Shown here: positions 16,727 to 44,875 of the stretch, in pieces
Numbering within the stretch: position 1 is the first letter of the stretch
How the letters are laid out: every line of letters begins with the position of its first letter
Assembly (NCBI RefSeq): GCF_003018255.1
Contig: NZ_CP027440.1
Source: Escherichia coli
GTDB lineage: Bacteria; Pseudomonadota; Gammaproteobacteria; Enterobacterales; Enterobacteriaceae
DNA length: 64,000 nucleotides
Direction: 5' to 3' (one strand)
Notes under the pieces: generated by a model
Database searches by the model: none
What the model saw: only the letters and a program-made list of their open reading frames with translations
Told to the model about the DNA's origin: nothing
Program-made: the position numbers and the translations under genes

Positions 16727-16836
16727 TTTGCTTCCAGAAATGATAAAAAAATAATCAAAGGCCGGGGATTATAAGCCGGAACGAAAGAGAAATCGAAAGG
16801 TATTCCATACTCGCCCTCCTCGGGCGAGTATGAAGA

Positions 16837-24485: not shown

Positions 24486-25145
24486 ATGCGAATTTTACTG
24501 ATAGAAGATGACATGCTGATTGGCGACGGCATCAAAACGGGCCTTAGTAAAATGGGTTTTAGCATCGACTGGTTTACACAAGGTCGTCAGGGAAAAGAGG
24601 CGCTATATAGCGCGCCTTATGATGCGGTGATCCTGGATTTAACCTTACCAGGCATGGATGGTCGCGATATTTTGCGCGAATGGCGAGAAAAAGGTCAGCG
24701 TGAGCCGGTACTGATCCTGACCGCGCGCGATGCGCTGGCGGAACGTGTAGAAGGGCTGCGTCTGGGAGCTGACGATTATCTGTGTAAACCTTTTGCGTTG
24801 ATAGAAGTCGCCGCCAGGCTGGAAGCTCTGATGCGCCGAACCAACGGCCAGGCCAGCAACGAGCTGCGCCACGGCAACGTCATGCTCGACCCCGGCAAAC
24901 GTATCGCCACGCTGGCTGGCGAACCCTTAACGCTGAAACCAAAAGAATTTGCCCTGCTGGAATTACTGATGCGTAACGCTGGTCGGGTACTGCCGCGCAA
25001 ACTGATTGAAGAGAAACTGTATACCTGGGACGAAGAGGTCACCAGTAATGCCGTTGAAGTGCATGTGCATCATCTGCGACGCAAACTCGGCAGTGATTTT
25101 ATTCGTACCGTTCATGGTATTGGCTACACATTAGGTGAGAAATGA
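24486..25145 (+). CDS. qseB: Two-component response regulator QseB (219 aa)
   Basis: ORF track 219 aa; OmpR-family receiver plus winged helix; overlaps qseC start by 4 nt. Confidence 0.95.
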
Positions 25146-26491
25146 AATTTACCCAACGTCTTAGTCTGCGAGTCAGGCTGACGCTAATCTTTTTAATTCT
25201 GGCCTCAGTGACCTGGCTGCTTTCCAGCTTTGTCGCCTGGAAACAAACAACGGATAACGTCGATGAGTTGTTCGACACCCAACTGATGCTGTTTGCCAAA
25301 CGGTTAAGTACGCTCGATCTCAACGAAATCAACGCGGCAGATCGCATGGCACAGACGCCAAATAAATTAAAACACGGTCATGTTGATGACGATGCGCTGA
25401 CCTTTGCCATCTTTACCCACGACGGCAGAATGGTCCTTAACGATGGCGATAACGGAGAAGATATTCCCTATAGCTATCAACGGGAAGGTTTTGCTAACGG
25501 GCAACTGGTCGGTGAAGACGATCCCTGGCGTTTTGTCTGGATGACCTCACCTGATGGCAAATATCGCATCGTTGTTGGTCAGGAATGGGAATACCGCGAA
25601 GACATGGCGCTGGCGATTGTTGCCGGGCAATTGATCCCGTGGCTTGTCGCACTGCCGATTATGTTAATCATCATGATGGTACTACTGGGTCGTGAACTCG
25701 CGCCGCTGAACAAACTGGCGCTGGCACTACGTATGCGTGACCCTGACTCGGAAAAACCACTAAACGCGACGGGCGTACCCAGCGAAGTGCGTCCACTGGT
25801 TGAGTCGTTGAATCAACTGTTCGCCCGCACACATGCGATGATGGTTCGTGAACGACGCTTTACCTCCGACGCAGCTCACGAACTTCGTAGCCCGTTAACG
25901 GCGCTGAAAGTGCAAACCGAAGTTGCGCAGCTCTCTGACGATGATCCGCAGGCGCGGAAAAAAGCGCTGCTTCAATTACATTCCGGAATCGATCGTGCTA
26001 CTCGTCTGGTTGATCAACTGCTCACGCTATCGCGGCTGGACTCACTGGATAACCTTCAGGACGTCGCGGAGATCCCGCTTGAAGATCTCCTGCAATCGTC
26101 GGTGATGGATATTTACCACACGGCGCAGCAGGCGAAAATTGACGTGCGACTGACACTCAAAGCCAACGGCATCAAACGCACCGGACAACCGCTATTGCTA
26201 AGTTTGTTGGTGCGAAATTTGCTGGATAACGCCGTGCGCTACAGTCCACAAGGTAGCGTGGTAGACGTCACGCTGAATGCCGATAATTTCATCGTGAGGG
26301 ATAACGGCCCCGGTGTGACACCAGAGGCATTGGCGCGAATTGGCGAACGCTTCTATCGCCCACCCGGACAAACCGCTACCGGCAGTGGACTTGGGCTATC
26401 GATTGTCCAGCGAATCGCCAAGCTGCATGACATGAATGTTGAATTTGGGAATGCGGAACAAGGTGGATTTGAGGCGAAGGTAAGCTGGTAA
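25142..26491 (+). CDS. qseC: Sensor histidine kinase QseC (449 aa)
   Basis: ORF track 449 aa; HAMP/HisKA/HATPase architecture; recognised sequence. Confidence 0.95.
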
Positions 26492-26496
26492 CTTCT

Positions 26497-26538
26497 CTGT
26501 CTATGAGAGCCGTTAAAACGACTCTCATAGACTTTACT
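26497..26538. terminator. Hairpin (10-bp perfect stem) between convergent qseC and ygiZ
   Basis: Seen in sequence: tctatgagag ... ctctcataga inverted repeat immediately after the qseC stop; no strong T-run. Confidence 0.35.
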
Positions 26539-26869
26539 AATAGCAAAATATAAACCGTCCCCAAAAAAGCCACCAACCACAACCCAGACAAATAACGAGC
26601 GAGAATACATATAGCCAAAACTCGAACATTTCCCGCATAAAGAGTTTTCTTAAGATAAGAATAATAAGTGGTGTCAGAAGAAAAAATGCTGCAATCATTG
26701 CTTGCAATATACGATCTTCGCCTGAAACAGAAGGTATACTGCAAATATTGTCTCCCGACTCAAGCATCCAGTCATACTTATTGAAAGCAAAAAAAGAATC
26801 TATTAACCAATAAGTAAGCATTATATATAATAGTGCTTCAAATATTGATAGTAGTTGTTTTTTTAACAT
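26537..26869 (-). CDS. ygiZ: Small inner-membrane protein YgiZ (110 aa, about 3 TM segments); here the third gene of the hcp module
   Basis: ORF track 110 aa; hydrophobic segments; ATG lies 6 nt after the stop of the upstream 236-aa gene; AT-rich like the insert. Confidence 0.85.
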   Translation of the reverse strand: MLKKQLLSIFEALLYIMLTYWLIDSFFAFNKYDWMLESGDNICSIPSVSGEDRILQAMIAAFFLLTPLIILILRKLFMREMFEFWLYVFSLVICLGCGWWLFWGRFIFCY

Positions 26870-26875
26870 ATCTGA

Positions 26876-27586
26876 TTACTCATTAATCAATTTTTTGATA
26901 TGTTCTCTAATCTCTAACAACCTCATACCATAAGAGATGAATTTATAATCATCTGTATCACGCGCAGGCAAATTATTAATTAAACAAATAAAAAAGCCCA
27001 AATCTCGTTCAACACCACGATTATATCTAATACCAGCCATAATATACTGCTCATTCGTCATATACAGTGTTGCCGAAGAGGGATAATCAAAAAGGACAAG
27101 ATCTCTTAAATAAGTAGCAGCAATTTGAAAGGTAAAATCATCCTCCATTAGGCATGTCGCTAACTCTAACTGATTTCTGGTAGTTAATTCTGAAGGGTCT
27201 AGACCTAGAGTAATCGCTGCGGTTCGTATTTGTATACCCATTGAGCCAAATGATGTTTTATTTTCAGGCATATCTAACAATCCCATCATTCTTTTTGTTT
27301 CATATATCTGAAACTTATAATTTTCAGGCATACCTCCTGACTCAATCCAGGCCACGCCGCCCAGTAACTCTGGACGAATTCCAGCGGCGTATGCATGTTT
27401 AATTATTTTGTCTCTATTATATTGTACATATGCATCTTTATAAGCATTTAAATAATATACTCCTGAACGGCGACGCGAATCATTTTTTCCTAACTTCCAG
27501 AGTAAAACGTCCATTTCATCCCATTTACGGAACTTCGCTTGTGGAATTGTACAATATCTATTTTTTATAGTGAGATCGCTTTTCAT
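26876..27586 (-). CDS. Hypothetical protein (236 aa from ATG; track ORF extends to a TTG at 27613); possible lysozyme-like / lytic-transglycosylase-like T6SS cargo
   Basis: ATG begins 2 nt after the hcp stop; no signal peptide; contains V-x3-E-S-x3-P (VAWIESGGMP) followed by GSMGIQIRTAAITLGL and IRYNRG, reminiscent of SLT-domain motifs (ES...GLMQ...AYNxG). The family assignment is inference only. Confidence 0.6.
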   Translation of the reverse strand: MKSDLTIKNRYCTIPQAKFRKWDEMDVLLWKLGKNDSRRRSGVYYLNAYKDAYVQYNRDKIIKHAYAAGIRPELLGGVAWIESGGMPENYKFQIYETKRMMGLLDMPENKTSFGSMGIQIRTAAITLGLDPSELTTRNQLELATCLMEDDFTFQIAATYLRDLVLFDYPSSATLYMTNEQYIMAGIRYNRGVERDLGFFICLINNLPARDTDDYKFISYGMRLLEIREHIKKLINE

Positions 27587-27588
27587 AT

Positions 27589-28068
27589 TTAAAAAATCCT
27601 TTCTTCCCAACAACTATATGATTCCGTACTCGCGATATGGTGCTTCCATGTTATATTTTTATAATTAAGAACAATGACCTCTTCCGGCTGATTACCCGCA
27701 TGTGTAATTGAGTGTGGATAACATGTCAGAATATTCGATAAATGTGCTCCTTGCAATTCAATTGTGTAAAACCTTTCAATACAACCGCCAGAATTAACTC
27801 TATAAAAATTAAATACAGCTGATAACTCTTCATTTTCAGAAAGAGCGGCATTTAATAAAGGGGAGGATTTATCTATTGGCTTGTAAAATTTTATGGGGTG
27901 ATGCACTACATTATACTCTCGACTTAAAGAATGGTCGAACTGTAAAACAAAAATTTCATCCACATGATTTATTTGATATTTATTACCAATAGATGCATAC
28001 GAACCACAACCCTCAGAGATCAAACCTTGTATTTTCCCTTTAATTGATAAGTATATGATATTTGACAT
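27589..28068 (-). CDS. hcp: Hcp family type VI secretion tube/effector-carrier protein (159 aa), orphan copy
   Basis: 159 aa, typical Hcp size; blocks HPIKFYKPIDKSSPLL and LNYKNITWKH...SYSCWEER align with canonical Hcp motifs (TPFxFTKEIDxSSPxL, ITWTY...SWNER); GGAG Shine-Dalgarno upstream of ATG; no other T6SS structural gene in the window. Confidence 0.85.
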   Translation of the reverse strand: MSNIIYLSIKGKIQGLISEGCGSYASIGNKYQINHVDEIFVLQFDHSLSREYNVVHHPIKFYKPIDKSSPLLNAALSENEELSAVFNFYRVNSGGCIERFYTIELQGAHLSNILTCYPHSITHAGNQPEEVIVLNYKNITWKHHIASTESYSCWEERIF

Positions 28069-28317
28069 ATATATTCTCCATAATCATTTTTTCCGAAAAA
28101 CTCCTGTATCATTTGCATAATACATCTCTCCTGTGGGAGCTTATGGGAAGTTGATTTAAGTATTGTCATTTTCAGAAAATATTTATCCCGCATCGGTGAA
28201 TCAGAGAAAGATCAGACTTTTGCTAAATTCGCAAAAGACTTTGCACATTTTGCTAATTTCACCGTACCGCTCTGTGACGTACTATAGTCGGCAAACGTCT
28301 CACCTTGAGGTTAAAAA

Positions 28318-28899
28318 ATGAGCAACATCCTGATTATCAACGGCGCGAAAAAATTCGCCCACTCCAATGGTCAACTGAACGACACCCTGACCGAAGTCGC
28401 GGATGGCACACTGCGCGACCTCGGGCATGATGTCCGCATTGTTCGCGCCGACAGCGACTACGATGTCAAAGCGGAAGTACAAAACTTTCTCTGGGCTGAT
28501 GTGGTGATCTGGCAGATGCCTGGCTGGTGGATGGGCGCGCCGTGGACAGTGAAAAAATATATTGATGATGTATTCACCGAAGGTCACGGGACTCTGTATG
28601 CCAGCGATGGTCGTACCCGCAAAGATCCATCAAAAAAATACGGTTCCGGCGGCCTGGTACAGGGCAAAAAATATATGCTTTCTCTGACCTGGAACGCACC
28701 AATGGAAGCCTTCACCGAAAAAGATCAGTTCTTCCACGGCGTTGGTGTTGACGGTGTGTACCTGCCGTTCCATAAAGCAAACCAGTTCCTTGGCATGGAA
28801 CCGCTGCCGACATTTATCGCTAATGACGTGATAAAAATGCCTGATGTTCCCCGCTATACTGAAGAATATCGCAAGCATCTTGTGGAAATTTTTGGTTAA
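28318..28899 (+). CDS. mdaB: NADPH:quinone oxidoreductase MdaB (193 aa)
   Basis: ORF track 193 aa; recognised sequence. Confidence 0.95.
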   Translation: MSNILIINGAKKFAHSNGQLNDTLTEVADGTLRDLGHDVRIVRADSDYDVKAEVQNFLWADVVIWQMPGWWMGAPWTVKKYIDDVFTEGHGTLYASDGRTRKDPSKKYGSGGLVQGKKYMLSLTWNAPMEAFTEKDQFFHGVGVDGVYLPFHKANQFLGMEPLPTFIANDVIKMPDVPRYTEEYRKHLVEIFG

Positions 28900-36483: not shown

Positions 36484-36509
36484 AAAAAAGCCCGGTATGT
36501 TTACCGGGC
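36484..36509. terminator. Bidirectional terminator between receptor gene and GPH symporter gene
   Basis: Seen in sequence: A-run, then gcccggta-tgtt-taccgggc hairpin (T-run on the minus strand). Confidence 0.5.
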
Positions 36510-36588
36510 TGAGACTGATGACAAACTCCAAATTGTCTGATGCGCTACGCCCATCAGATCTACCATAGAAATTCAATATATTAAATTT

Positions 36589-37920
36589 TCATATATTTTT
36601 AGGCTGTAAACACACCTTAATCTGTTCGTAATATTCATTATTAATCAGATAAAATCTCATGATGAGTCCGGTAATCAGGTTAAGTATCGCGGGAATGATC
36701 GTCATTAACAGGCAGATCCCCCACAACGCCTGTGGTGTTTGTTCTACGCCAGGTTGATAGTCCATAAACGCTAAAGCGATTCCGATAAACCCTCCCGCCA
36801 GTCCCATACCAAACTTTTGAAAAAAGAGAATCCCGCCAAATGCCAGTCCAGAAACACGTTGCCCCGTTTTCATTTCACCATAATCCACTGACTCAGCAAT
36901 GGATGCCCAATAAATGGGAAGCTGAATATCAGTCAGAAAGGTCACCACAATATAAAATGTAAAAGCTAACACTATAGAATTTGGTTGCACGAAATACATC
37001 GCACCACCCACCACGAACGCCAGTAATTGGGTATAACGAAATATTTTTATTTTGTCGTAGAGTCGAGTAAGCCAGGTGCAAGCGATCATAGCCAGAACAG
37101 AGGCGATCACGCCTGAAGTTAAAAACGGTGAAATTAAAGCATCCCCACCATTCAGGTAATATTTTGCATAATATGCAGCGACAGAGTTACGAATAATCCC
37201 GCCAAACATAATGATCGCAATTACAGCGCCCAAAATGAGCCATTGATCATTTTTGATCAGTAACCGAAACTGCGCGGCCATACCGAGACTGGGTTTTGGA
37301 TGGTAGATGCGCTCTCTCACGCTAAAAAAACAATACAGGCATAAACACGTTGCCAGAATTCCCATTGCCCCCATTGCTATTTGATAACCCAGTTGTACGT
37401 TATTCTTCCCAAGATACATTGCAGATAAAGGAACAATAATTGTTACGGCGAACATGGCAATTTTTGTCATAACAAAACGATAACCATTGGCGCTCAATCG
37501 CTCTTGTGGATCATCCGTGATAACGCTGATTAATGAAACATAAGGAATAGCGATTAACGTATAGGTCAAGGTAAGTAACACATAGGTAGCCCAAGCCCAT
37601 AAAAGCTTAACTGAATAATCGGTATTAGGTGTGGTGAACATCAACCAAATGCTTATCCCAAACGGTATTGACATAAAAAGCAACCACGGCCGATATTTTC
37701 CCCAACGTGTATTCGTTCTGTCTGTCATTGTTCCCACAACTGGATCAATCACAGCATCAAGGATACGTACAGAAAATAACAGAATACCTAAGTCGACGGG
37801 TTTCAGACCAAATACATCCGTGTAAAAATAAGTGATGATCATGGCCAAAGACATCATTACTATCGCGATAGCCATATCACCAGCACCAAAACCTATCTTT
37901 TCATTTATTGTAAGTTTCAT
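36589..37920 (-). CDS. MFS/GPH-family glycoside-pentoside-hexuronide:cation symporter (about 443 aa)
   Basis: 12-TM-like hydrophobic profile with MelB/GPH-like N-terminal region (GFGAGDMA, DxxxDPxxG-like DAVIDPVVGTMTDR); start set at the ATG for MKLTINEK. Confidence 0.8.
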   Translation of the reverse strand: MKLTINEKIGFGAGDMAIAIVMMSLAMIITYFYTDVFGLKPVDLGILLFSVRILDAVIDPVVGTMTDRTNTRWGKYRPWLLFMSIPFGISIWLMFTTPNTDYSVKLLWAWATYVLLTLTYTLIAIPYVSLISVITDDPQERLSANGYRFVMTKIAMFAVTIIVPLSAMYLGKNNVQLGYQIAMGAMGILATCLCLYCFFSVRERIYHPKPSLGMAAQFRLLIKNDQWLILGAVIAIIMFGGIIRNSVAAYYAKYYLNGGDALISPFLTSGVIASVLAMIACTWLTRLYDKIKIFRYTQLLAFVVGGAMYFVQPNSIVLAFTFYIVVTFLTDIQLPIYWASIAESVDYGEMKTGQRVSGLAFGGILFFQKFGMGLAGGFIGIALAFMDYQPGVEQTPQALWGICLLMTIIPAILNLITGLIMRFYLINNEYYEQIKVCLQPKNI

Positions 37921-38206
37921 ACACAGCACTCATTGATTACGTGAACTTATATTAAAAACAAATATATCTGAACTCATTCAGCACATAACTTTACGAGTGA
38001 GCATAAATGCATTGGTTGATACCACAACAAACCATTGAGTCAATATTGAGCAACATCACATAAAAACCAATTTCACTTAATCTCATGATTTATATATTTA
38101 ATTGTGGTTTTTTCTGTTTTATGTCACAGATAGTGAACAAGCACCATGCGTAATAAAAGTTAAAGAATGTAGAGTTGGTATCAACCACTTGAAATGAGGC
38201 TTTGTC

Positions 38207-38959
38207 ATGATAAAAATTTATAAAGCCAGTAAAGGTCAGCTAAAGCATCGTGAAATCTTTGATGAAATAAAGAAAAAAGTAGATAACGGTGAATGGAAAG
38301 AAGGCAAAGCCATACCGACAGAAAGGGAATTGTCAGAATATTATTTAAGTAGCAGAACAACTATTCGAAAGGCAATAGAAAGTCTTAAACAACGCGGCTA
38401 CCTGCATAGTGTCCACGGGCAAGGAACATTTGTATTGCCTTCTCGTAGTAGAGAAAATCATTTATTGCATAGTTTTACCGACGATATTAAAGCTCGAGGT
38501 GGTATACCAGCACAGAATATTCTTGAGATAGGCTATGTTCCTGTCAGTGATGTTATCAGAAAAAATCTCGACCTGGATATCCATATCCAAACCGTATTCT
38601 GTATAAAACGCGTTCGCTATATGGGAAGTACCCCCCTGGGTATTCAGACATCATGGCTTGCATTAAATGACAGGCAAGAAATAACCCAAGAAGATCTGCT
38701 GGCGACGGGTTCGCTCTATATTTTACTGGAAGAAAAACTCGCTATTAAACCTTTAGAAGCAACAGAAATTATCTCTGCCCGGCTTCCCTCGCCCCTTGAG
38801 CGTCAATTACTGGAACTGACTGCCGATGATGTCGTATTAAGTTGTACCCGCGTCACGTTATCCGTGGAACGCAAACCAATGGAGTATGTAGAGATGGTGT
38901 ATCCCGCAAGCCGGTACTCCTACAAAGCACGAATTACAAAAGACAGTTTTAGCGTGTAA
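38207..38959 (+). CDS. GntR/HutC-family transcriptional regulator with UTRA effector domain (250 aa)
   Basis: N-terminal GntR winged HTH (PTERELSEYYLSSRTTIRKAIESL) and a C-terminal domain of UTRA length. Confidence 0.85.
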   Translation: MIKIYKASKGQLKHREIFDEIKKKVDNGEWKEGKAIPTERELSEYYLSSRTTIRKAIESLKQRGYLHSVHGQGTFVLPSRSRENHLLHSFTDDIKARGGIPAQNILEIGYVPVSDVIRKNLDLDIHIQTVFCIKRVRYMGSTPLGIQTSWLALNDRQEITQEDLLATGSLYILLEEKLAIKPLEATEIISARLPSPLERQLLELTADDVVLSCTRVTLSVERKPMEYVEMVYPASRYSYKARITKDSFSV

Positions 38960-38972
38960 CAGAGAGAATATT

Positions 38973-40049
38973 GTGAACAAAATAGAACAAGCTGTAATTT
39001 ATAACAAAATATTAGGTTCTTTAGCCTGCGCAGGTATGGGCGATGCATTAGGCGCAGCGACTGAACTCTACAGCATTGATGAAATAAAAGCTCAATGGGG
39101 AGGTTTTTTAAATGCCTTTGTTTCTCCTCCTGCCGATACATTCGCTGGCTCATTAAATGGTATTGCGGGACTTATCACCGACGATTCCAGCCAAATGTAT
39201 GTGTTTTCAGAAGGGTTAATTGAGGCTGGATTTGATAACTTCACCAATAATGACTGGTTAGCTTGTCTTCTGCGTTGGGCCGATATGCAGCCCTACGCAA
39301 ATTATAAAGGCCCCACAACAGAACAAATCGTCAAGGCACTAAAAGAAGGTAGACCAACAAACACCATTGGGCGTATTGGAACATCTTCTCGTCAGGCACC
39401 CAATGTCGGCACCACGAATGGAGCAGGAATGCGTGTAGCCCCTGCAGGATTGATCTGGCCAGGCAAGAAAGAAAAAGCGTGTCACCTGGCGCTAATAACT
39501 TGCCTACCTTCGCATGACACCAATATTGCGATTGCCAGCGCTTGCGCCATCGCTGCGGCGACATCACAAGCTATGTTACCAGAAGCTTCGCTCACATCAT
39601 TACTGGACGCCGCAATCTGGGGAGCGAATTACGGCGAACGCCTGGCCAAACAATATGCACGATGTGTCGCAGGGCCATCTATCGCCATGCGCATCCAACT
39701 TGCAGCGGACATCGCCAGACGAGCCAATGACCTGGAGTCTTGTCTGCGAGAAATGGAAGGTTTGGTTGGTAACTCTGTTGCCGCCCATGAATCCATTCCT
39801 GCGGCAATCGGTCTATTGCTGTACTGCAAAGGAGAACCCTGGGAAACCATTCATGCCTGCGCCAATATTGGCAATGACACCGATAGCATCGCTACGATGG
39901 CAGGCGCAATTGCAGGGGCATGGCGCGGTTTTGATGCGCTCCCTGAAGATAAATATGCCTTTTTCCGCGCCGTAAATAATAAAGATTTCGATATTGAAGC
40001 GATCGCATCGGGTCTGACATTGCTTGCATTAGAGGCACAGGAGAAATAA
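38973..40049 (+). CDS. ADP-ribosylglycohydrolase (ARH/DraG) family protein (358 aa)
   Basis: N-terminal GSLACAGMGDALGAATE and C-terminal NIGNDTDSIATMAGAIAGAW blocks match the two conserved ARH-family metal-binding regions. Confidence 0.8.
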   Translation: MNKIEQAVIYNKILGSLACAGMGDALGAATELYSIDEIKAQWGGFLNAFVSPPADTFAGSLNGIAGLITDDSSQMYVFSEGLIEAGFDNFTNNDWLACLLRWADMQPYANYKGPTTEQIVKALKEGRPTNTIGRIGTSSRQAPNVGTTNGAGMRVAPAGLIWPGKKEKACHLALITCLPSHDTNIAIASACAIAAATSQAMLPEASLTSLLDAAIWGANYGERLAKQYARCVAGPSIAMRIQLAADIARRANDLESCLREMEGLVGNSVAAHESIPAAIGLLLYCKGEPWETIHACANIGNDTDSIATMAGAIAGAWRGFDALPEDKYAFFRAVNNKDFDIEAIASGLTLLALEAQEK

Positions 40050-41047
40050 TGAACATGCCAGCCCGTACTCCTGTTATGCCATTAGCGCAAACTCGTGAGG
40101 AGATAAATGCTACGGCGGCATCGTTACGCCATTTGGCAGCTATCTGGGGTGAATGTTTTTCTACTTTTCAGCTCGATAAACGTGCTGTTGAACGCGTCTG
40201 TATAGTGGGATCGGGCGACTCCTGGACGGTGGCACTATGTGCCGCCGCCTGGCTGGGGAAATACACACATCTGTTTTGTTACGCATTGCAAACGTGGGAT
40301 TTTCTTCAGACTGATTTAACCCGTTATCAGAAAGAAACGTTAATCATTATTCTCAGTGCAAGTGGCAGACCATCAATGACCGTTGACGCCCTCTGCCACG
40401 CAGTATGCTCAAACGCGCAAGTGCTGGGTGTGACGAATTGCCCTGGAACACCATTTTGCGCAATAACAGAAAACATGCTCTATACATGGGCGAATAAGCA
40501 GGGTATTCCAACGCAAAGTAGTAGCGTCACACTTTATGCCCTCCTGCGCTTAGCGCAAAAATTATGTCCAGGCTTAACACCACTGCAGATTGAAGATGAT
40601 TTGGAAGGGAAATTTAGCCAGATTAATCAGCACTGGCAGCAAAAGAAGCGCCATTTTTACCAACAAAAAGAGATAACGTTTCTTGGGAGTGGCTTAAGTT
40701 GGGGACTGGCAATATCGGGGAGCAATTTACTTTCTTGCGGCCCACAGATTCGTGCGACAGCCCTTCCACTGGAAGAATTTTATCATTCATTACGCTTACA
40801 TCAGGCTGGTGTCGGTCAGCATTATATTTTACTACCAGCCACATCCTGCGAGTCCCCATTTTACCTTGCAACCCAAAAAGCAATTGTTGAACAGGGAGCG
40901 ACAGCAGAATTAATCAGTTTTATACCTGACGCCAGTGAGTCCAACAATTTATTTCTGGTCATGCAGTGGTTATATGAAATGTGCTGGAATTTAAGTTGTG
41001 ATTATGTCGACGCAGGCGGGCAACGCGTTAGCCATAGGGAGAAATAA
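40049..41047 (+). CDS. Double-SIS-domain sugar-phosphate isomerase/deglycase-like protein (FrlB/AgaS-like), 332 aa
   Basis: Two SIS-like segments (VCIVGSGDSW...IIILSASGRPSMTVDA and ITFLGSGLSWGLA...); its start overlaps the ARH stop by 1 nt (TAATG). Confidence 0.72.
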   Translation: MNMPARTPVMPLAQTREEINATAASLRHLAAIWGECFSTFQLDKRAVERVCIVGSGDSWTVALCAAAWLGKYTHLFCYALQTWDFLQTDLTRYQKETLIIILSASGRPSMTVDALCHAVCSNAQVLGVTNCPGTPFCAITENMLYTWANKQGIPTQSSSVTLYALLRLAQKLCPGLTPLQIEDDLEGKFSQINQHWQQKKRHFYQQKEITFLGSGLSWGLAISGSNLLSCGPQIRATALPLEEFYHSLRLHQAGVGQHYILLPATSCESPFYLATQKAIVEQGATAELISFIPDASESNNLFLVMQWLYEMCWNLSCDYVDAGGQRVSHREK

Positions 41048-41051
41048 GACT

Positions 41052-41966
41052 ATGAAGAAATTTGATGTCGCCGCTTTAGGCAGTGGAAATATAGATATTT
41101 TTTTATCTATCCCGTCACTCCCCACTCGTGGCGGTAAAGTTGTCGGGACACGTCTGGGTGAACAAGCTGGCGGCACAGTCGCCAACAGTGCCTGTGCGAT
41201 GGGACAACTGGGTCTCAATGTGGTATCTGTTTCATGTGTGGGCAATGATCATTCAGCCTCGATCATTCTTGATGGATTTAAAAAATATCATGTAAATTGT
41301 GATTTCGTTCAGGTAATTCCGGAATTGATTGCCAATACCGCGATTATCTTTATTGATGAATTAGGTGAAAAAACGTTGGTTTACTCGCCTGGTAGTGATC
41401 ATGAGTGGGATAAAGAAAAAGCCCTGCAGGCAATTGCGCAAAGCCGTTATTTTTATACGATGCCAGCAGATATCGAGAAATTTCGTATGCTGGCCGAATA
41501 TTCCCGTAGCCAGATGACAAAAGTTGTCGTTGATATTGAGCCTCATATCATTGCAACACCTGAACACCTTGCCAGAATTTTACACCTTGCTGATATTGCG
41601 ATATTTAATTATGACGGTTTTATTCGTGGCTATGCAACAGAGCCAGATTTTACACTTCTGCATGATATACAAGACGAGTATCAACTTGACGCTGTCGTGG
41701 TTACGCTGGATGTTAGGGGAGTAATTGCAGTCAAAGGCAATGAGCAAGTAAAAATAGGTAGTTATACAATTCCCGTTATTGATACCACAGGCGCTGGAGA
41801 TACTTTTAATGGTGCATTTGTTTATAGCTTAATAAAAAATATGCCCTTAATTGAAGCACTAAAATTTGCTTCTGCCACAGCAGCAATAAATATTACTGCA
41901 TTAGGTGCCAGAGGTCATCTGCCGACACCATCGGAGGTTAATCTTTTTCTTTCACAACACGACTAA
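41052..41966 (+). CDS. PfkB-family carbohydrate kinase (ribokinase-like), about 304 aa
   Basis: PfkB signature DTTGAGDTFNGAF near the C-terminus and a glycine-rich N-terminal lid; start set at MKKFDVAALGSG, 5 nt after the SIS stop. Confidence 0.85.
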   Translation: MKKFDVAALGSGNIDIFLSIPSLPTRGGKVVGTRLGEQAGGTVANSACAMGQLGLNVVSVSCVGNDHSASIILDGFKKYHVNCDFVQVIPELIANTAIIFIDELGEKTLVYSPGSDHEWDKEKALQAIAQSRYFYTMPADIEKFRMLAEYSRSQMTKVVVDIEPHIIATPEHLARILHLADIAIFNYDGFIRGYATEPDFTLLHDIQDEYQLDAVVVTLDVRGVIAVKGNEQVKIGSYTIPVIDTTGAGDTFNGAFVYSLIKNMPLIEALKFASATAAINITALGARGHLPTPSEVNLFLSQHD

Positions 41967-41993
41967 AATCATATATATACAAAGGTAAATATC

Positions 41994-43118
41994 ATGAAAA
42001 TAAGATATGCCGCTATTTTTCTGGCATTACCGCTGTTATGCACAACAGCGCAGGCAAACAGTTTTCTTCATTATGCTGGGGAGTTTAACTTCCGGACGGG
42101 AGAAAAGCAGAACAATGTCACAATCGCGGGGCTATCAGCCATCACATTTGATGCAAAAAAAAATATTTTCTATGCTATTAACGATAGCAGAAACAATAAT
42201 AAAGAAGGAGATGCCAGTCTTTATACACTAAAAATACAGGTATCATCCAGGGGCATTGAGCAAGTGAATTTTCTCAACCAGCGTCCACTGCTTGATGCAA
42301 AACAGCAACCTTTCGTGACCAATACGGTGGATGCCGAAGGTCTGGCCCTGACACACAATGGTAAATCATTACTCTGGAGTTCGGAGTTAGGTGCTCCACT
42401 GCGTCTGAGCACTCTCGATGGCGTAATGGAGAAAGATTTTACGTCTTTATTTCCTGCTCGCTTTAATATTAGTTCTGACAAAGAGAGCAGCAATGGTATT
42501 CGCAGCGGCAACGCCTGGGAGGGCCTGACAGTTACACCAGATGGAAAATCACTTTTTATCGCCGTTGAAAGCAGCCTTAAACAGGATGGGCCTATTGCAA
42601 GTCCAATAAATTCAGGCACATCACGCTTACTGCAATTTTCTATAGATGCAGACGGTCGACCTTCAAAGCAATTGCATGAATATCTCTATATTACTGATCC
42701 TGTTCCGCAAGTGAGTAAGTTCGGTATTAATGATAATGGCGTATCCGAGGTCATGGCGCTGAATGATCACCAATTGTTGGTCATCGAACGTTCCGGCAGA
42801 AACGTCAGTGCTGGGTTCAATGACTGGGATTACTCTGTCAGAGTTTATATGGTCGATTTAACTGCTGCCAGCGATATCAAGAATATTGACAGTCTGCAAG
42901 ATTGGTCCAATAAATCCACGTTACAACCCGTCAGTAAAAAATTATTAATTGATTTTGCTGATTACACTTCCTCTGCGGATTGTATTGAAGGGGTAACCTT
43001 CGGTCCTCTGATTGATGGGCATACATCGTTAATATTTGTATCTGATAATAATTTCCAGCCCCATCAACAGACGAAATTTTATCTATTCATTGATAAGGAA
43101 AACAAACTTAAAATTTAA
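41994..43118 (+). CDS. Secreted beta-propeller phytase-like / esterase-like protein (374 aa) with signal peptide
   Basis: Signal peptide MKIRYAAIFLALPLLCTTAQA; repeated EGLxxTxDGKSLFIAxE and IEGVT blocks resembling beta-propeller phytase-like proteins; family assignment is tentative. Confidence 0.5.
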   Translation: MKIRYAAIFLALPLLCTTAQANSFLHYAGEFNFRTGEKQNNVTIAGLSAITFDAKKNIFYAINDSRNNNKEGDASLYTLKIQVSSRGIEQVNFLNQRPLLDAKQQPFVTNTVDAEGLALTHNGKSLLWSSELGAPLRLSTLDGVMEKDFTSLFPARFNISSDKESSNGIRSGNAWEGLTVTPDGKSLFIAVESSLKQDGPIASPINSGTSRLLQFSIDADGRPSKQLHEYLYITDPVPQVSKFGINDNGVSEVMALNDHQLLVIERSGRNVSAGFNDWDYSVRVYMVDLTAASDIKNIDSLQDWSNKSTLQPVSKKLLIDFADYTSSADCIEGVTFGPLIDGHTSLIFVSDNNFQPHQQTKFYLFIDKENKLKI

Positions 43119-43213
43119 AGTCAAACTATAGATACAAAAACATTCTAATACATGGAATCATCAGATGGTGTATTCGATCACCAAAAATATATTTTATTCT
43201 GAAAGGGAATATT

Positions 43214-43948
43214 ATGAATTCTTATCTTAAAATATCACTTGCAGGAATAACAATGTTATCCTGCCTGTCACCTACACTAGTCTGTGCAGAACAGCCGCAT
43301 GGATTTATTGATTATCGCCATGAGTATCTTGATGATACTCGCACCCACGCGGACCGCGTTGAATTTGGTACATTTTTTAGTAATGGTATCGGTTTGATGG
43401 GAGAATTACGCTATAACACCGATGAAGGTGATAAAGATAAGTGGGACCCCTCACAATTTGGCAATAACGGAACAGGATTATCTGTTGTTTACCGCTTTAA
43501 GCCGCTGGATGACAAAAAATTCTGGTTAGAACCCATGTTCTGGCTTGATACCACGCAATATTGGTCAACTTACGAATATGGTCTTTCTGCGGGTTATGAC
43601 TTCAGCAAAGAATGGAAAGTTTCAGGTCGGTTTCGTTATGACATGGATAAAGCCACCGATAAATCCAAAGGTTATGGCAACGATGATCGTAATAACCGCC
43701 GTTACGATGTGTGGATCGACTATCGACCACAAAAAACCAACTTCCAATATCAGTTAAACCTGGTCTATTACAATAATGGTTATTTAACCTGGAATGATGG
43801 CCATAAAAACTATACCGCATCATTTAAAGTAGGGTACAAAATGGGATCGTGGATACCCTATATGAGTATTGCGGATTATAAAGGTGTGGATAAAACATCA
43901 AGTAATCGCCAAATCCGCTGGCGCTGGGGTCTGACTTATACTTTCTAA
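43214..43948 (+). CDS. KdgM/NanC-family small outer-membrane porin (244 aa)
   Basis: Signal peptide, about 220-aa mature protein with alternating amphipathic beta-strand pattern rich in Y/W/R/D, C-terminal ...WGLTYTF aromatic terminus; resembles oligogalacturonate/sialic-acid-specific porins. Confidence 0.7.
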   Translation: MNSYLKISLAGITMLSCLSPTLVCAEQPHGFIDYRHEYLDDTRTHADRVEFGTFFSNGIGLMGELRYNTDEGDKDKWDPSQFGNNGTGLSVVYRFKPLDDKKFWLEPMFWLDTTQYWSTYEYGLSAGYDFSKEWKVSGRFRYDMDKATDKSKGYGNDDRNNRRYDVWIDYRPQKTNFQYQLNLVYYNNGYLTWNDGHKNYTASFKVGYKMGSWIPYMSIADYKGVDKTSSNRQIRWRWGLTYTF

Positions 43949-43961
43949 TCTGGAATAAAAA

Positions 43962-44831
43962 ATGAATAATAAATTTAAAATCATTCTCTGGATGATGCTC
44001 TCTGCTCTGCCTGCTTTATCTTACGCACAGGTAAAAAATATAGTTACTGGCGAATATAGTGCGGTCAGTAAAATTATCACAGAAAAGGAAACTCTCTATC
44101 CATCCGATAAGATATTATTGGTTTTTGACATTGATAACACGTTATTAACGAGTGGCACTCGCATTGGCGGTGATATCTGGTATCAATGGCAAACCGATAA
44201 ATTGCCTTTAAAGCCGGATGACTCGCAAAAAGTTCCTTGCCTGTATGAAAATACAATCAGTATGCTTTACGAACTTAGCCCTATGCAGCTTACCGAGCCA
44301 CAGTTACCGACAATGTTAAAACAGTGGCAACAAAAGCATACCGCTTTTGCTCTGACATCCCGTGCACCGGATACTCTCTTTCCGACATTGCGGGAATTAA
44401 AGCGAAACGGCATTGATTTTTCGTCTTCCGCACTCAGGAAGAAAGAGGATACTTTGCCACCCTTTGAAAAAGGGAAACTCAAACGGTCATGGCTGTACAG
44501 CCAGGGGGTATTTTTTTCTTCCGGGCAAGATAAAGGCGTAATTCTCGATTATATGCTGGATAAAATGGGGAACAAATATGACGCGATTGTTTTTATCGAT
44601 GACGGGCAAGCAAACATTCATGCGATGACGAAGATGTTCTCTAAGGATAAATGGTCCTCTACGGATTTTACCATTATTCACTATACCAGAGTGGAGGATG
44701 AGCTTATTAAACAACAAGGTGCAGTAATAACAACTGCACAAGCAGAAAAAATGGCTACGGACTGGAAAACTCTGGCTGGTTCGCTGGCAACACTATTTCC
44801 AGATCGTAATAAACTGTGCCCAATAAAATAA
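43962..44831 (+). CDS. Secreted HAD-superfamily hydrolase/phosphatase-like protein (289 aa)
   Basis: Signal peptide MNNKFKIILWMMLSALPALSYA; HAD motif I DxDxT (VFDIDNTLL) and later FIDDGQAN aspartate motif. Confidence 0.6.
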   Translation: MNNKFKIILWMMLSALPALSYAQVKNIVTGEYSAVSKIITEKETLYPSDKILLVFDIDNTLLTSGTRIGGDIWYQWQTDKLPLKPDDSQKVPCLYENTISMLYELSPMQLTEPQLPTMLKQWQQKHTAFALTSRAPDTLFPTLRELKRNGIDFSSSALRKKEDTLPPFEKGKLKRSWLYSQGVFFSSGQDKGVILDYMLDKMGNKYDAIVFIDDGQANIHAMTKMFSKDKWSSTDFTIIHYTRVEDELIKQQGAVITTAQAEKMATDWKTLAGSLATLFPDRNKLCPIK

Positions 44832-44839
44832 TCAACGAC

Positions 44840-44868
44840 AACCCGGCAAAACACATGTTTGCCGGGTT
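44840..44868. terminator. Hairpin between the island's last gene and parE
   Basis: Seen in sequence: aacccggcaaa-acacatg-tttgccgggtt, 11-bp perfect stem; no strong T-run. Confidence 0.4.
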
Positions 44869-44875
44869 AAGATTA

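Follow-up and report, generated by a model that had tools for sequence, protein, structure and literature searches.

We analysed a 64,000-nt stretch of Escherichia coli DNA (contig NZ_CP027440.1; hereafter the window, with coordinates counted from its first letter) in which three genes, hcp, a gene for a protein that we call X, and ygiZ, follow one another on the minus strand. We consider it likely that hcp-X-ygiZ is an auxiliary type VI secretion system (T6SS) module, in which an orphan Hcp acts as the carrier, X as a Tse3-like cell-wall glycosidase effector and YgiZ as the membrane immunity protein. The orphan hcp gene (tssD; 27589-28068) encodes a 159-aa T6SS-2-type tube and chaperone protein. 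X (26876-27586), a predicted cargo effector of 236 aa, starts at an ATG 2 nt past the hcp stop codon, and ygiZ (26537-26869) encodes a 110-aa DUF2645 protein with three predicted transmembrane (TM) helices, the predicted inner-membrane cognate immunity protein. With gaps of 2 nt between hcp and X and 6 nt between X and ygiZ, all on one strand, the packing of the three genes is operon-like; the coordinates, lengths and spacings given in a first-pass annotation of the window proved exact to the base.

That annotation had read the locus as an Hcp-linked effector/immunity cassette. The reading gains support from the X domain standing behind PAAR, Rhs and extracellular contractile injection system (eCIS) core modules in other proteins, from the DUF2645 gene that follows X throughout, and from the fact that hcp-X never occurs without ygiZ. 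In the library searched, we found no description of an hcp-X-ygiZ module, no publication linking ygiZ or DUF2645 to T6SS and no mention of DUF2645 at all, in agreement with the earlier remark that the arrangement is not characterised at this locus; published work on ygiZ consists of promoter and terpene-tolerance studies alone.

The orphan Hcp and the predicted effector

Judged by profile scores, the 159-aa protein is a genuine member of the Hcp/TssD family, as had been claimed: it matches PF05638 (E 1.9e-19) and TIGR03344 (196.9 bits against a cut-off of 58.9, residues 1-157), and the PDB sequences of Hcp3 and Vibrio cholerae Hcp match it with E about 1e-20. For closer comparison we used strain KC-Dl-1, which is identical (100%) to the window over 26400-28400, module included, and carries a complete T6SS-1 (metV island) and a complete T6SS-2 (aspV island). 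The orphan Hcp aligns without gaps and at equal length with the 159-aa Hcp that closes the aspV T6SS-2 cluster (50% identity), and is 31% identical to the T6SS-1 Hcp and 28% identical to the hcp product adjoining vgrG. Further relatives (48-53% identity) end, at the 3' side, VasI-TssA-TssM-VasL clusters next to yafT in Citrobacter freundii and Escherichia albertii. By these sequence comparisons the orphan Hcp is a T6SS-2-type paralogue. The published Hcp2B of avian pathogenic E. coli was rejected as its identity, because Hcp2B adjoins vgrG2 in the aspV cluster (PMC5874247). In E. albertii (L037, 7512-9211), the terminal 159-aa Hcp of T6SS-2 is followed by open reading frames (ORFs) of 288, 149 and 124 aa without Pfam match, a candidate further hcp-linked effector/immunity set.

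Within the 64 kb, a tblastn search with 36 T6SS-1 and T6SS-2 proteins, including VgrG and PAAR, matched only the orphan hcp, so that the claim of no VgrG, PAAR or T6SS core gene in the window holds for both systems. In KC-Dl-1, the module sits about 0.4 Mb and 2 Mb from the T6SS clusters.

The window encodes Hcp and X separately, with the hcp stop codon and the 2-nt gap between them, and not as a covalent toxin fusion of the Hcp-ET kind. The Hcp-X fusions that we did observe are deletion derivatives: the protein P0002, from an E. coli-like contig, is an in-frame deletion fusion of Hcp(1-100) to X(12-236), and in a Citrobacter-like metagenome contig (L001, 5563-6711) a frameshift interrupts hcp, whose C-terminal portion is joined in frame to X at the WEE/WDE motif.

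X has neither a hydrophobic N-terminus nor a signal peptide or lipobox, which bears out the earlier statement that it lacks a signal peptide. Searched alone, it has no Pfam match even at E <= 10. NCBIfam, PADLOC and PDB sequences, the latter searched with X alone and with an X profile, returned nothing usable, and the PDB searches revealed no sequence homology to Tse3. Close homologues form only 34 clusters, each of them from Enterobacterales and annotated 'hypothetical'. X matches the unannotated family phrog_11932 in PHROGs (E 3.7e-28), and tblastn against 50,697 records of deposited phage genomes did not find it.

A profile search of 1.84 billion representatives retrieved 374 X-domain relatives at E <= 1e-3, many of them longer proteins with a C-terminal X domain. 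We examined the architectures of a sample of 50. The N-terminal partners are eCIS_core/DUF4157 in 12 proteins, PAAR in 2-3, Rhs cores, and MuF in one distant relative, and peptidoglycan-binding domains also accompany the X domain (OmpA in 5, PG_binding_1 in 2-4). By domain content, these partner architectures are those of delivered polymorphic toxins and peptidoglycan-binding proteins. Pfam SLT is matched in just 6 of the 50, all distant X-domain proteins (E 0.003-0.1).

A first AlphaFold2 (AF2) model of X, built from 25 close homologues, reached a predicted confidence (pLDDT) of 64.5; a model rebuilt from an alignment with 32 trimmed distant domains reached 92 and gave the same fold assignment. 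The model has the goose-lysozyme/SLT fold, with the highest tabulated figure for Tse3, the T6SS muramidase effector of Pseudomonas aeruginosa (12.2), followed by Slt (11.7), MltE (11.4), MltC (10.7), Slt70 and MltF (both 10.6) and goose-type lysozyme (9.7); EtgA also shares this fold. Identity to Tse3 in the structural alignment is 14%.

Alignment of the X profile with E. coli MltC by hhalign (E 0.083) places all four motifs of family-1 lytic transglycosylases in register. More specifically, WIE82S of X aligns with QTES of MltC, which holds the catalytic Glu, GIQ119I with GLMQ, DDFTFQIAATYL with DPASNIDTGTAYL, and RY188NRG with AYNGG. Residues E82, S112, G114 and G191 are invariant, Glu82 in every alignment made, and Q119, Y188 and N189 are at least 90% conserved. 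X also carries 19 inserted residues after the Glu and before the GxxQ motif, a W-x3-D-x3-W extension that is conserved at the N-terminus, and an SYG helix at the C-terminus. From the fold and the motifs, we predict that X is a glycan-strand-cleaving enzyme of the glycoside hydrolase family 23 (GH23), lysozyme-like fold outside Pfam coverage, either a lytic transglycosylase or a muramidase. The SLT-like motif noticed in the first-pass annotation is thus real, and no clear unrelated housekeeping function emerged for X.

Pairing of X with DUF2645 proteins

YgiZ, labelled in RefSeq as a DUF2645 family protein, matches DUF2645 (PF10840) over residues 13-109 (E 7.8e-11); its K-12 allele shows 9 differences in 110 residues. 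Hydropathy, the positive-inside rule and the alignment point to three TM helices. In the predicted layout, a cytoplasmic N-terminus is followed by a loop that exposes about 26 residues to the periplasm, then by a short, basic loop in the cytoplasm and finally by a periplasmic tail of 6 residues. Two cysteines, C43 in loop 1 and C109 in the C-terminal tail, are invariant in all hcp-linked YgiZ homologues; since both fall on the predicted periplasmic side, the sequence suggests a C43-C109 disulfide.

Outside E. coli, we compared 12 distinct hcp-X loci drawn from Citrobacter, Pseudocitrobacter, Pectobacterium, Serratia, Buttiauxella and further assemblies. All 12 share the order hcp (159 aa), X (236-246 aa) and a DUF2645 or DUF2645-like ORF (about 110 aa) with minimal spacers. 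Adjacency and co-orientation of the putative effector and immunity genes extend to all 1,261 carriers found in E. coli. Across eight other genera of Enterobacterales, the triad occupies five different chromosomal sites as well as plasmids: mdaB/qseC in Escherichia, Citrobacter and Pseudocitrobacter, pagP/eamA in Pectobacterium, fliJ/fliI in Buttiauxella, a site between an ABC-transporter gene and polB in three further assemblies (L026-L028), and, in Serratia, conjugative plasmids of the F-like kind, with colicin genes nearby. Serratia sp. H1w holds two more, diverged copies. Because homology between unrelated loci does not reach beyond the three genes (as in L006 compared with L022, 7304-9068), the triad is, on sequence grounds, a discrete mobile unit of about 1.5-1.8 kb. 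On plasmids, X homologues are found in 13 of 72,556.

Several of these loci deserve separate mention. In Buttiauxella (L009, 7520-9045; L020; L023), the triad lies between fliJ and fliI, inside the flagellar export operon and in opposite orientation to it, and in B. gaviniae the DUF2645 gene is apparently frameshifted. Of the two copies in Serratia sp. H1w (L022 and L024), one resembles the Serratia plasmid triad and the other the Pectobacterium triad. The F-like conjugative Serratia plasmid CP074138 (L008, 15638-16723) carries the triad about 6.5 kb from genes for a pore-forming colicin and a microcin-family product, thus gathering several interbacterial weapons on one replicon.

The pairing is also seen where Hcp is replaced by another module. 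The X domain is fused to PAAR or Rhs elsewhere, and a PAAR-X fusion (P0038) still has a DUF2645 gene behind it, whose start codon overlaps the stop codon of the fusion. Behind a 310-aa X protein whose N-terminus differs comes an ORF with a weak DUF2645 match, and behind a distant PAAR-X come two tandem DUF2645-like ORFs with three TM segments and a common N-x-Y-(D/E)-x-(M/L) motif after TM1. Altogether X and DUF2645(-like) genes are paired in four or more protein architectures and at six or more unrelated places in genomes, frequently with an overlap of stop and start codons, and no X locus among those examined is without a DUF2645-type partner. Judged from these architectures, the X-DUF2645 pairing survives a change of delivery module.

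Among the non-E. coli loci, identity ranges from 54 to 77% for Hcp, 55 to 74% for X and 28 to 64% for the DUF2645 partner. Ratios of nonsynonymous to synonymous substitution rates (dN/dS) lie at 0.05-0.15 in hcp, 0.06-0.18 in X and 0.23-0.35 in ygiZ. By this measure, all three genes are under purifying selection, with the immunity candidate evolving fastest.

To compare hcp-X-ygiZ with ygiZ alone, as the first-pass annotation had proposed, we surveyed 5,426 complete E. coli genomes. The hcp-X pair is present in 1,261 (23%), in every case with an adjacent ygiZ, and ygiZ in any form in 4,598 (85%). About 3,337 genomes (61%) have ygiZ alone, the K-12 type, and about 828 (15%) have neither, the O157:H7 type. 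An antidote often without the toxin and a toxin never without the antidote is the pattern by which effector-immunity pairs with orphan immunity genes are recognised. Carriers include Nissle 1917, sequence type 131 (ST131), UTI89 and many strains of extraintestinal pathogenic E. coli (ExPEC). Both hcp and X are intact (at least 80% coverage) in 1,260 of the 1,261 carriers, and in all 40 sampled carrier rows they are annotated as coding sequences (CDS), not pseudogenes; one copy, H82, is truncated.

Blastn against the window located the breakpoints of the other two states. In K-12, 1,293 bp (26848-28140) are swapped for 163 unrelated bp, with a breakpoint within the first ygiZ codons, and hcp-X is absent. 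In O157:H7, the sequence from the qseC stop codon through ygiZ (26492-28213) is gone. Because Citrobacter and Pseudocitrobacter share the triad at the same mdaB/qseC site as E. coli, the simplest history is probably an old acquisition followed by repeated loss, and not a recent insertion beside a resident ygiZ; the K-12 state looks like a deletion remnant. The insert described in the first-pass annotation is therefore real as an extra AT-rich segment relative to K-12, and probably not an insert that arrived recently at the ygiZ locus. In E. coli EC05 (L014, 972-2155), an IS5-like element, ISKpn26, separates ygiZ from mdaB, which carries a frameshift according to its annotation.

Proposed mechanism and competing explanations

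We propose that X, lacking a signal peptide, is synthesised in the cytoplasm and would be packed inside the ring of its dedicated Hcp paralogue. A T6SS would then inject it into a neighbouring Gram-negative cell's periplasm; of the systems considered, the aspV-island T6SS-2, owner of the closest Hcp relative, is the most compatible. There, the GH23 Tse3/Slt-like domain would cut the MurNAc-GlcNAc backbone (N-acetylmuramic acid and N-acetylglucosamine) of peptidoglycan, with Glu82 as the catalytic acid, and cause lysis. In the producer and its kin, YgiZ would present its short loop and C-terminal tail, probably disulfide-linked, to the periplasm and neutralise incoming X. Where a lineage lost hcp-X, ygiZ would have stayed behind as orphan immunity; that most E. 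coli, K-12 among them, have ygiZ alone would then be explained by YgiZ being the likely antidote.

In this scheme, the module would work like Tse3/Tsi3 (Tge1/Tgi1) of the P. aeruginosa H1-T6SS, and X shares the Tse3 fold with its catalytic Glu. The differences are considerable: Tse3 is a 408-aa protein with an extra N-terminal domain and without a sequence-level match to X, and it is a muramidase, whereas X keeps motifs of the ES / GLMQ / AYNxG lytic transglycosylase type. The gene downstream of X does not encode a soluble periplasmic protein like Tsi3, as in a Tge1-type pair, but the 110-aa DUF2645 protein with its three hydrophobic segments. Compared with the family-1 (GH23) lytic transglycosylases Slt70, MltC, MltE and MltF, X alone has the W-x3-D-x3-W extension and the SYG helix, differs by the 19-residue insertion and the missing signal peptide or lipobox, and occurs in a toxin context and not a housekeeping one.

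The closest organisational likeness is to hcp islands (those of Pantoea, E. coli Hcp-ET, and Salmonella Tlde1 next to hcp), in which hcp is directly followed by an effector-immunity pair, Hcp is a dedicated carrier, and orphan immunity genes are kept after effector loss (PMC9796082). Unlike these, the present module is wholly detached from T6SS clusters, keeps Hcp and X separate, and uses other effector and immunity families. Acinetobacter baumannii Tse4/Tae17 (PMC11796386 for Tae17) and V. cholerae VgrG-3 likewise bring T6SS-delivered domains that cleave glycan strands, but they are VgrG-dependent or VgrG-fused, have periplasmic immunity partners and show no sequence kinship with X, and Tae17 is bifunctional. 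A SleB-like T6SS effector (PMC11148199) and the Pantoea lysozyme-like effector (PMC9796082) were considered as the family of X and rejected, each belonging to a different family. As judged by sequence, the module has no membership in Tge1, Pfam SLT or Hcp-ET, and its immunity protein is unlike known types.

A number of points weigh against the effector-immunity reading. For X, the Pfam SLT family (PF01464) misses the protein entirely, and the hhalign match to MltC is weak when taken alone. For the partner, the known immunity proteins to peptidoglycan glycosidase effectors, Tsi3 and Tgi2, are either lipoproteins or soluble in the periplasm. Among them, a membrane protein of polytopic type that offers just about 26 and 6 residues to the periplasm is atypical, and the cysteine pair is missing from the most distant DUF2645-like partners. 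YgiZ could also have a role independent of X, given that in K-12 it has its own promoter, activated by BglJ-RcsB (PMC3950696), and that its overexpression raises tolerance to the terpene sabinene and improves cell shape (PMC7181518).

The main difficulty concerns the machine that would fire the module. The first-pass annotation had asked whether carriers encode a T6SS core. Using chimeric queries and inclusion-exclusion, which assume single-copy targets and megablast-level similarity, we estimate that a metV-type T6SS-1 tssC is present in about 903 of the 1,261 carriers (72%) and a T6SS-2 tssC in about 275 (22%). By these estimates most carriers own a T6SS, yet not the one whose Hcp matches best; Nissle 1917 and ST131 clade A are examples with T6SS-1 only, UTI89 one with both systems. 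Because only about 22% have T6SS-2 and the T6SS-1 Hcp is just 31% identical to the orphan Hcp, the matching machine may be missing in most carriers. In addition, tssM is reported to be disrupted by an insertion sequence in ST131 clade C, a further point on this side, and B2 lineages to have conserved tss regions (PMC10711316).

These considerations lend some plausibility to the view that the module is a decaying relic, once a weapon and now unfired in most E. coli carriers, with hcp and X as silent AT-rich passengers, probably H-NS-silenced, and selection acting mainly on ygiZ as a defence against other attackers. About 78% of carriers are without T6SS-2 tssC, hcp-X is already lost from most E. 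coli, and a sigma-70 consensus scan found no convincing promoter 5' of hcp. Degenerate copies exist as well, namely the frameshifted and fused hcp in Citrobacter, the deletion fusion P0002, the truncated copy H82 and the frameshifted DUF2645 gene in B. gaviniae. Decay does not sit easily, however, with the nearly universal integrity of hcp and X among the carriers, with dN/dS values of 0.15-0.18 within E. coli and about 0.06 against Citrobacter, or with an intact triad in eight other genera. We therefore regard a relic as improbable, and note that it is compatible with an origin of the three genes as an effector-immunity module.

The K-12 promoter and sabinene phenotypes, together with the unusual use of a polytopic membrane protein as immunity to a cell-wall glycosidase, would also suit a YgiZ that is an unrelated envelope-stress membrane protein, adjacent to X by accident, with the true immunity determinant, if any, encoded elsewhere. 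Accident would have to account for DUF2645(-like) genes trailing the X domain in all the architectures and unrelated sites described above, with no partnerless X locus among those examined, and we hold it to be very unlikely. Least likely of these alternatives is that X is a dedicated peptidoglycan remodeller opening the producer's own wall for T6SS assembly, with YgiZ as anchor or regulator: it has precedents in TagX, VirB1, EtgA and the MltE recruited by Sci-1 of enteroaggregative E. coli, X shares its fold with MltE and EtgA, and YgiZ is membrane-embedded, but X, having no signal peptide or lipobox, could not reach its own periplasm by Sec, its domain stands last in PAAR, Rhs, MuF and eCIS-core proteins, where toxins are placed, the module lies far from T6SS clusters and also on plasmids, and ygiZ stands alone in 61% of E. 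coli including K-12, a count of ygiZ and not of T6SS content.

If the effector-immunity reading of hcp-X-ygiZ is right, it would give ygiZ, an uncharacterised K-12 gene, a testable function as an orphan type VI immunity gene. The X domain would be a new peptidoglycan-glycosidase effector domain, absent from Pfam and reused by T6SS, Rhs, MuF and eCIS toxins. The three-state polymorphism (weapon and antidote in 23%, antidote only in 61%, neither in 15%) would predict who kills whom among gut E. coli, with O157:H7, for example, sensitive to probiotic or ExPEC B2 strains.

A more specific proposal, which we offer only tentatively and think somewhat doubtful, is that YgiZ represents a new, polytopic-membrane type of orphan T6SS immunity and, on the outer side of the inner membrane, counteracts a Tse3-like toxin that cleaves glycan. 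Were this so, X would attack a membrane-proximal substrate, either nascent glycan strands or lipid II, and the mature sacculus would not be its target. The roughly 15% of E. coli without ygiZ, including O157:H7, would be selectively susceptible to B2, D and F strains armed with X, for example Nissle 1917, and polytopic membrane immunity against a cell-wall glycosidase would widen the known modes of neutralisation.

Surroundings of the module in the window

The module lies in an AT-rich island whose full extent (26492-28213) was set by the blastn breakpoints against O157:H7 and K-12 and by the GC profile, and equals the stretch missing in O157:H7-type genomes. Its GC content is 34.1%, against 49.5% elsewhere in the window, which confirms the AT-richness noted earlier. 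On one side it is flanked by qseBC (24486-26491, plus strand), of which qseC itself (25142-26491, plus strand) is convergent with ygiZ, and on the other by mdaB (28318-28899, plus strand), divergent from hcp. The 249-bp intergenic region between hcp and mdaB (28069-28317) presumably holds the promoter of the module, by position only.

Between the convergent qseC and ygiZ, a 10-bp inverted repeat, TCTATGAGAG-N12-CTCTCATAGA (26500-26532), was read from the sequence and recovered as a self-reverse blastn match. It is a possible bidirectional terminator; a simple terminator scan, which requires a T-run, did not call it. An Rfam search was uninformative for the module.

Elsewhere in the window, several segments vary between genomes. 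As a whole, the window is colinear with none of the genomes that we inspected, KC-Dl-1 included, from which it differs by indels of 7.7 and 8.4 kb. An island between ygiN and parE (29289 to about 36400) encodes an RpiR-family regulator, an iron-siderophore ABC (ATP-binding cassette) transporter and a TonB-dependent receptor, and is missing in the record named E. coli 042 (L015), where parE directly follows ygiN. Between the TonB-dependent receptor gene and parE, an 8.4-kb block (36498-44871), missing in KC-Dl-1 and present in about 404 of the 5,426 E. coli, encodes a major facilitator superfamily (MFS) transporter, a phytase-like esterase, an ADP-ribosylglycohydrolase, a SIS-domain protein and a carbohydrate kinase. 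The segment at 56730-58847, near a fimbrial operon, has no counterpart in KC-Dl-1. Between ygiQ and ftsP (about 16773-16836), the window is without the 7.7-kb island of KC-Dl-1, which encodes a GntR regulator, a mannitol dehydrogenase and a TRAP (tripartite ATP-independent periplasmic) transporter.

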